This document shows, in pieces, positions 54,981-55,484 of a stretch of DNA of 64,000 nucleotides. This DNA comes from a phage. Where the stretch lies: assembly GCA_014686905.1 (NCBI GenBank), contig GCA_014686905.1_4093.1, one strand, 5' to 3'. Below the pieces are notes generated by a model. That model made no database searches and was not told the origin of the DNA. It saw nothing but the letters and a program-made list of their open reading frames with translations. The first letter of the stretch is position 1. Each line of letters begins with the position of its first letter. The translations under genes were made by a program, and so were the position numbers.

Positions 54981-55484
54981 ATGAAATCTATTATTGCCAA
55001 TAACGAAATCACCGCAAAAACTGTACGTCTTGTTACGGAAGGTGCAAGTGAGGTCATGGCAATCTCTAAAGCACTTACTTTAGCAGAAAATCAAGGATTG
55101 GATTTGGTGGTTATTGGTGCAGGTGATGAACCTGCTGTCAAAATTACAGATCTTAACAAATACAAATATGAGTTGAAGCAAGCTGAAAAGGCTTCTCTTA
55201 AAAAACAACGACAAAATGCCGTGAGTATTAAAGAGATTCAATTCAACTTTGGTACACAAGAGCACGATTTGCAGATTAAAGCAAAAAGTGCTGAAAAATT
55301 CCTTGATGAAGGAAAACATGTACATATTGTAATGAAAACTTCAGGACGTGGAACTAATGCATCAGTAATTCAAGCAAATATTAATGCAATGGAATCATTC
55401 GTTAATCGTTTGGGTAACGTTTCATATGTTCAAAAAGTCGAGTTCCAAGGTAAAAAGGTAACCTGTACTGTCAAAGTAAAATAA
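54981..55484 (+). CDS. translation initiation factor IF-3 homolog
   Basis: [10 protein letters not shown]...[25 protein letters not shown]...[44 protein letters not shown] aligns along the whole length with E. coli InfC (EIRAQEVRLT...[26 protein letters not shown]...[43 protein letters not shown]). Confidence 0.8.

Follow-up and report, generated by a model that had tools for sequence, protein, structure and literature searches.

Bacterial initiation factor IF3 is an anti-association factor which, together with IF1, counteracts pY/RaiA, and it accepts AUG, GUG, and UUG starts alike. In Escherichia coli, IF3 represses its own translation via the AUU start codon of infC.

The contacts made by the bacterial factor on the initiating ribosome have been described in detail. 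In the cryo-EM series of Thermus thermophilus IF3, Arg91 forms a hydrogen bond with A+1 of the start codon, while Arg123 touches first U+2 and then the +4 base. Residues R25 and R66 of E. coli IF3 contact the elbow of the initiator tRNA, and Y75 of IF3 was seen by cryo-EM to stack on C701 of h23. Variation at position 131 (E. coli numbering) has also been reported. The E. coli R131P variant initiates more from non-AUG codons, from leaderless mRNAs, and with the 3GC-mutant initiator tRNA; Mycoplasma IF3 carries P, F, or Y at this position; and leaderless translation is no longer inhibited by E. coli IF3 when it bears the mitochondrial KKGK motif.

IF3 encoded by phages has been named in print several times. 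The paper on phage CBB (2017) described IF-3 as common to CBB, GAP32, 121Q, PBECO4, and RaK2, and Iyer et al. (2021), Al-Shayeb et al. (2020), and the paper on phage Sharanji (2025) named phage IF3 and speculated on host takeover. IF3 is mentioned neither in the PA5oct RNA-seq paper nor in the fEgEco12 paper, and our literature searches returned annotation-level remarks on phage IF3 and no functional experiment on any of these proteins.

A phage-encoded IF3 homolog and its genomic neighborhood

The window analyzed here, i.e., the whole stretch of 64,000 nucleotides of phage DNA, is 99.9% identical to Escherichia phage vB_EcoM_phAPEC6 (MK817115.1, genus Asteriusvirus), a RaK2-like jumbo phage of 352 kb, and a further 193 kb of the phAPEC6 genome was taken in beyond the window. 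The initial annotation had assigned a 167-aa product to positions 54,981 to 55,484, and an open reading frame was confirmed exactly there on the plus strand. The features of the locus are collected in Table 1. GenBank labels gp165c as "translation initiation factor IF-3" in phAPEC6 itself; the IF-3 annotation is also given in 121Q, slurp01, Sharanji, GAP32, CBB, and others, and further annotated members of the RaK2-like IF-3 family are GAP32_313, CBB_318, 121Q gp47, RaK2 ORF153, and Sharanji WNN14575.1. PHROG 9787 ("translation initiation factor") matches gp165c along residues 1 to 167 with E = 6e-71. The identification of gp165c as a phage IF-3 is correct but already known, since it is annotated in GenBank for phAPEC6 and phage IF-3 is named in several papers.

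Table 1. Features of the IF3 locus, with positions counted from the first nucleotide of the window
Feature	Position	Strand	Description
Sigma-70-type promoter (putative)	54908..54936	+	TTGACA 54908-54913, 17-nt spacer, TATAAT 54931-54936; 12/12 consensus match
Shine-Dalgarno-like GGAG	54967..54970	+	10 nt before the ATG; read from the sequence
IF-3 homolog CDS	54981..55484	+	ATG start, 167 aa plus stop; phAPEC6 gp165c (QDF13794.1)
IF3 N-terminal domain	54999..55193	+	Residues 7-71; Pfam IF3_N, 1tif/6o6d fold matches
Lys-rich helical linker	55152..55226	+	Residues 58-82, including Y63 (E. coli Y75); predicted helix 58-79
IF3 C-terminal domain	55221..55475	+	Residues 81-165; Pfam IF3_C, 1tig fold match
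N89 codon	55245..55247	+	Equivalent of E. coli R99 / T. thermophilus Arg91
Variant loop K119-T-S121-G-R123-G124	55335..55352	+	Replaces bacterial 129-RFRGR-133 plus E134
ClpS-like adaptor gene	55498..56043	+	181 aa; Pfam ClpS, 24.7 bits versus cutoff of 23, residues 74-144; PHROG 15940
KTSC-domain protein gene	56115..56660	+	181 aa; Pfam KTSC, 51.8 bits, residues 20-75; third of the conserved trio

The proposal of the initial annotation that both IF-3 domains are represented was borne out by the profile search that it had recommended, which returned significant matches to IF-3 families. Pfam IF3_N (PF05198; 58.9 bits versus a cutoff of 26.9), Pfam IF3_C (PF00707; 51.8 bits versus 34.8), and the NCBIfam infC equivalog TIGR00168, matched over its full length (110.4 bits versus 60), all scored above their curated cutoffs. 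The two C-domain blocks quoted in that annotation are present, one of 18 residues (83 to 100) and the other of 12 residues (113 to 124), as is the Lys-rich linker segment of 19 residues, which falls in a predicted helix. The best relatives among solved structures, found with HMMER against PDB chains, are all IF3 (E. coli 8jsg_A, E = 3e-17). An AlphaFold2 model of gp165c, built with 23 homologs as input (mean pLDDT, 83), features an alpha/beta N-domain with four strands and one helix, a long helix spanning residues 58 to 79, and a beta-alpha-beta-alpha-beta-beta C-domain (strands 83-89, 113-119, 147-156, and 159-166; helices 94-109 and 127-144). When this model was submitted to Foldseek, all 25 matches at E < 0.01 were bacterial or mitochondrial IF3, with ribosome-bound T. 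thermophilus IF3 at the top (5lmn_X, TM 0.77). With TM normalized by target (TMt), the values were 0.84 for 1tig (C-domain) and 0.76 and 0.81 for 1tif and 6o6d (N-domain), respectively. Prediction and superposition, also recommended at the outset, thus yielded an IF3-like fold, and gp165c is a genuine two-domain IF-3 homolog encoded by a phage.

By tblastn, an IF3 homolog was identified in 95 phage records, about 60 of which belong to RaK2-like phages (52 to 100% identity) with hosts in Escherichia, Klebsiella, Salmonella, Erwinia, Yersinia, Serratia, Cronobacter, Pectobacterium, and Xanthomonas. The gp165c protein is 100% identical to its counterparts in 121Q, slurp01, and Sharanji, 69% identical to that of RaK2, and 56% identical to that of GAP32. 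At the nucleotide level, the 121Q gene and that of the window (54981..55481) show 0 differences in 501 nt while identity drops to 96.6% in the 3 kb around it, which suggests either local hyper-conservation or recent recombination. Two IF3 matches bearing the name "Acinetobacter phage MD-2021a" were excluded as host genes on bacterial thrS-infC contigs; under this name, CAKLQH020000014.1 is a bacterial chromosomal contig with fadD, thrS, infC, and yfcG.

The gene order comprising a Dda-type helicase, a structural protein, a small ORF, IF3, the ClpS-like adaptor, and the KTSC protein is the same in RaK2, GAP32, Turkey5, Munch, XbC2, and 121Q, with the ClpS-like gene adjoining IF3 in each of them. 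The KTSC gene is syntenic in all the relatives examined, including the Vibrio jumbo phage 2.275.O. In the latter, whose IF3 is 38% identical, the order is also the same except that a ribosomal protein S21 gene (Pfam, 48 bits; 3515-3760 of the locus piece) is inserted right after IF3, between it and the ClpS-like gene, which places two genes connected with initiation next to each other. In Agrobacterium phage Atu_ph07, IF3 adjoins a ClpX gene (zf-C4_ClpX plus AAA_2; 1173-2432 of the locus piece). The ClpS-like protein of the window has an unexplained N-terminal extension of about 70 aa ahead of its ClpS match.

The comparison with the IF3 gene of Ecwhy_1 gave 53.5 synonymous and 21.5 nonsynonymous differences (dN/dS = 0.07), and the gene is under strong purifying selection. 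Identity to E. coli IF3 amounts to 29% across the full alignment and to 38% in the best-matching local stretch of 120 residues, and no DNA match to the phage gene was found in 5,426 complete E. coli genomes. On the grounds of this low identity to the host factor, the missing genome match, the dN/dS value, and the deeply conserved gene order, the IF3 gene is old and inherited within the RaK2-like lineage, and its recent capture from the host is ruled out.

The initial annotation had described the promoter of this gene as the strongest-looking host-type promoter in the window. The candidate, located 45 nt upstream of the gene, does match the consensus perfectly, but it shares this distinction with a second site, as the 64-kb window contains two perfect TTGACA-17-TATAAT matches versus 0.17 expected by chance. 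The second one (41483..41511, plus strand) falls within ORF 41036..41707 and shortly precedes ORF 41716..42372. An 11/12 promoter-like site, TTGACA-17-TATGAT (54712..54740, plus strand), also precedes the IF3 promoter by about 200 nt and overlaps the start of the small ORF 54717..54911.

Upstream sequences were aligned for six relatives that belong to different genera, Turkey5, RaK2, Munch, GAP32, and XbC2 among them, and most bases of the -35 (T, T, A, C) and -10 (T, A, A, T) elements proved to be invariant in position while the flanks diverge. All six also have GGAG or GGA at about the same place, and the ATG start is invariant among them. Ecwhy_1 retains both perfect hexamers despite several changes in the spacer. 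From these consensus matches, we infer that the promoter is used and that host RNA polymerase transcribes the IF3 gene; PA5oct, which is related to the RaK2-like group, is dependent on host RNA polymerase. The gap between the IF3 stop and the ClpS-like start is only 13 nt and includes no terminator-like site, and the first plus-strand terminator-like site downstream of the IF3 promoter is that at 59014..59038, so that co-transcription of the IF3, ClpS-like, and KTSC genes appears plausible. The site itself is a 10-bp GC-containing hairpin with T-runs on both strands and looks like a bidirectional terminator. In the host (MG1655), infC starts with ATT and adjoins thrS, rpmI, and rplT.

Residues kept and replaced in the phage protein

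The alignment comprised the window protein, its E. coli counterpart, 28 close members of the family, and 138 representatives at a greater distance, drawn from an exhaustive HMMER search (5,660 matches at E <= 0.001). The window protein keeps the consensus residue in 36 of the 44 columns that are at least 60% conserved across the distant IF3s. The kept E. coli equivalents include N16, I19, V24, R25, A42, A46, D52, L53, P63, K/R66, D69, K72, Y75, K82, K94, E95, D106, K110, F117, G121, G132, R133, and G167, and the C-domain residues of the phage protein that are conserved family-wide are K84, E85, D96, K100, F107, G111, G122, R123, and G157. Known contacts of the N-domain and linker are kept as R16 (E. 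coli R25), K54 (E. coli R66), and Y63 (E. coli Y75). The pattern of kept residues argues that the docking of the phage IF3 on the 30S subunit has stayed normal.

The canonical motif with R131 plus R99 is missing from the window protein, which keeps R133. HMMER pairwise alignments to both E. coli and T. thermophilus IF3 are ungapped across the loop and the R99 site. A single numbering offset of +1 places Arg91, Lys93, Arg123, Gly124, and Arg125 on the aligned T. thermophilus chain, so that Arg91 corresponds to E. coli R99 and Arg123 to E. coli R131. Position 131 is basic (R/K) in 0/29 members of the RaK2-like clade versus 75/80 of the most distant IF3 representatives, position 134 is E, D, or Q in 0/29 versus 74/80, and position 99 is basic in 1/29 versus 49/80, where the counts refer to mutually related sequences and hence not to independent events. 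The residue found at position 99 in the clade is T, S, N, or A.

The loss of R131 as a general trait of phage IF3s is ruled out. The residue is basic in Atu_ph07, which keeps a canonical RFKGRE motif and R99, and in two of three huge-phage IF3s (LR756511 and LR756500); in Vibrio phage 2.275.O, the loop reads RLHGRA. The R131/R99 change is specific to the RaK2-like lineage and its close metagenomic relatives. In the literature that we searched, we did not find a description of this clade-wide loss of start-codon-contacting arginines, which we consider the one new detail on phage IF3 and which may entail a change of function. With the R99 and R131 equivalents exchanged across the clade, the phage factor probably proofreads start codons or the initiator tRNA differently from the host factor. 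The changes lower the claim of equivalent proofreading, not the claim of homology; with the RFRGRE loop and R99 not kept, full IF3 function cannot be assumed. The suggestion of the initial annotation that a phage IF-3 could bias initiation toward phage mRNAs gains one piece of indirect support from the loss of these start-codon-facing arginines.

The genes encoding tRNAs in phAPEC6 form a cluster of seven outside the window. The sole CAU tRNA ("Met"; 54612-54701 of the phAPEC6 record, minus strand) measures 87 to 90 nt and follows the type II scaffold, with its long variable arm. G1 pairs with C72, position 73 is A, GG is missing from the D-loop, the T-loop has the sequence UUAGAAU, and the anticodon stem is devoid of the three G:C pairs. 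This tRNA is present in only 9 phage records (78 to 100% identity), far fewer than carry IF3. We rejected the pairing of phage IF3 with an initiator tRNA of its own, as the only CAU tRNA is not an initiator; because of this, and of its presence in 9 phage records only, the initiator-tRNA test gave no support for altered proofreading. The neighboring tRNA-Ser (10255-10346 of the locus piece, minus strand) has an unusual ACU anticodon, GCU being the usual one for AGY codons.

Proposed role during infection and its alternatives

With a probability of roughly 0.6, we favor the reading that the phage gene supplies IF3 activity to host 30S subunits outside the feedback control of the host. Host RNA polymerase would transcribe the IF3 gene, probably along with its ClpS-like and KTSC neighbors, and the product would occupy the usual IF3 site on the host 30S subunit. 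Residues that appear fit for this binding are R16 and K54 (tRNA elbow), Y63 (h23), and K100, K102, K106, K119, R123, and K158, which make up the basic and structural core in the C-domain. Once bound, the phage IF3 would keep the subunits apart, recycle 30S, and speed the formation of initiation complexes, and the phage would benefit by having IF3 activity while host gene expression declines. As the phage gene starts with ATG instead of AUU, this copy would stand outside the autoregulation loop of host IF3 and escape the AUU-based feedback. Mass spectrometry identified 62 proteins in virions; gp165 was not one of them, which speaks neither for nor against this reading.

It is conceivable, if on balance doubtful, that the phage protein is instead a competitor that alters specificity, holding the IF3 site of the host 30S subunit without the arginines that inspect the start codon and shifting which starts and mRNAs initiate. 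Proofreading of non-AUG starts, of leaderless or weakly anchored mRNAs, or of noncanonical initiator tRNAs would then be relaxed, or the choice of initiating mRNAs otherwise changed, to the gain of phage messages. The clade-wide lack of a basic residue at 131, set against its presence in 75/80 of the distant IF3s and accompanied by the loss of E134 and R99, speaks for such a change, as do the contacts of T. thermophilus Arg91 and Arg123 with the start codon and the effects on fidelity of E. coli R131P, the mycoplasma 131 variants, and the mitochondrial KKGK motif. On the other hand, the phage protein retains R123 (E. coli R133), K119 (R129), and K158 (R168), and the greater length of its loop could make up for the loss. 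A basic residue at 131 is also lacking in about 6% of the distant IF3s, the IF3 of Atu_ph07 is canonical, so that the change is not general to phage IF3s, and the phage encodes no initiator-type tRNA for which relaxed selection would be required. Decay of the gene to a relic, contamination with host DNA, or a chance ORF, which would all make this a gene without function, is refuted by conservation: about 60 RaK2-like genomes carry the gene at full length, its dN/dS is the 0.07 given above, its promoter, Shine-Dalgarno sequence, ATG, and gene order are conserved, and it has no match in E. coli genomes.

Rather unlikely, in our judgment, is a role centered on ribosome availability, where surplus IF3 would, in a host that grows slowly or is under stress, dissociate 70S or hibernating ribosomes or keep them apart, recycle 30S subunits, and perhaps act in a timed interplay with a RaiA/HPF-family protein of the phage. 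phAPEC6 does encode such a protein, gp292c (21297-21629 of its locus piece, minus strand; Pfam Ribosomal_S30AE, 35.7 bits), with the CCA-adding enzyme gp287c nearby, and the retention of most conserved IF3-family residues is compatible with 30S binding and anti-association; yet the RaiA-like gene is about 127 kb from the IF3 gene, and nothing in the sequence sets this reading apart from the general supplement model. We give still less credence to a cooperation between IF3 and the adjacent Clp adaptor, in which, for example, ClpS would deliver host factors to ClpAP and the phage IF3 would take the place of its host counterpart. It draws on the adjacency of IF3 to a gene of the Clp system in three deeply diverged jumbo-phage lineages (RaK2-like, 2.275.O, and Atu_ph07) and on the presence in phAPEC6, outside the window, of a ClpA-like ATPase (gp246c) and ClpP (gp353c), with which the phage may carry a complete Clp system. 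Inherited gene order alone can explain the adjacency, however, and we know of no link between IF3 and N-degron proteolysis.

A virus with its own initiation factor could choose which messages the host ribosome starts, and the control of message selection at initiation by phages is an old idea. If the phage protein were indeed a competitor of altered specificity, it would represent a virus-encoded reprogramming of translation-initiation fidelity. Given the reporter systems already available in E. coli for measuring IF3 fidelity, the clade-wide loss of arginines makes this loosely framed idea open to direct experiment.

Comparison with described IF3 proteins

Compared to bacterial IF-3 (InfC; E. 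coli b1718 and T. thermophilus 5LMN), the phage protein has the same two domains with the same folds and, between them, a Lys-rich helical linker of comparable length, and it keeps most of the residues conserved across the family. It differs from the E. coli factor in being only 29 to 38% identical, in the ATG in place of the AUU start, and in lacking the N-terminal extension of about 10 residues, and its gene sits outside the thrS-infC-rpmI-rplT context, being followed by the ClpS-like and KTSC genes. It also differs from bacterial IF-3 in the RFRGRE loop, which reads KTSGRG, and in the replacement of R99 by N. Within the RaK2-like IF-3 family (PHROG 9787), of which gp165c is a member, gene order and promoter position are the same and there is no difference of substance.

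The R131P, Mycoplasma, and mitochondrial IF3 variants resemble the phage protein in being without the start-codon-facing arginine and in having a changed RFRGR motif. Relaxed fidelity was measured or correlated for these variants; for the phage protein, it would be a prediction. The phage clade, in turn, departs from these variants in that the equivalents of R99 and E134 are also missing and the loop is 1 to 3 residues longer. The translation genes of huge phages (IF1, IF3, S1, and S21) reported by Al-Shayeb et al. (2020) share with this locus the proposed redirecting of host translation, and the S21 gene directly after IF3 in Vibrio phage 2.275.O adds to the likeness, whereas the huge-phage IF3s that we examined belong to separate, more canonical lineages.
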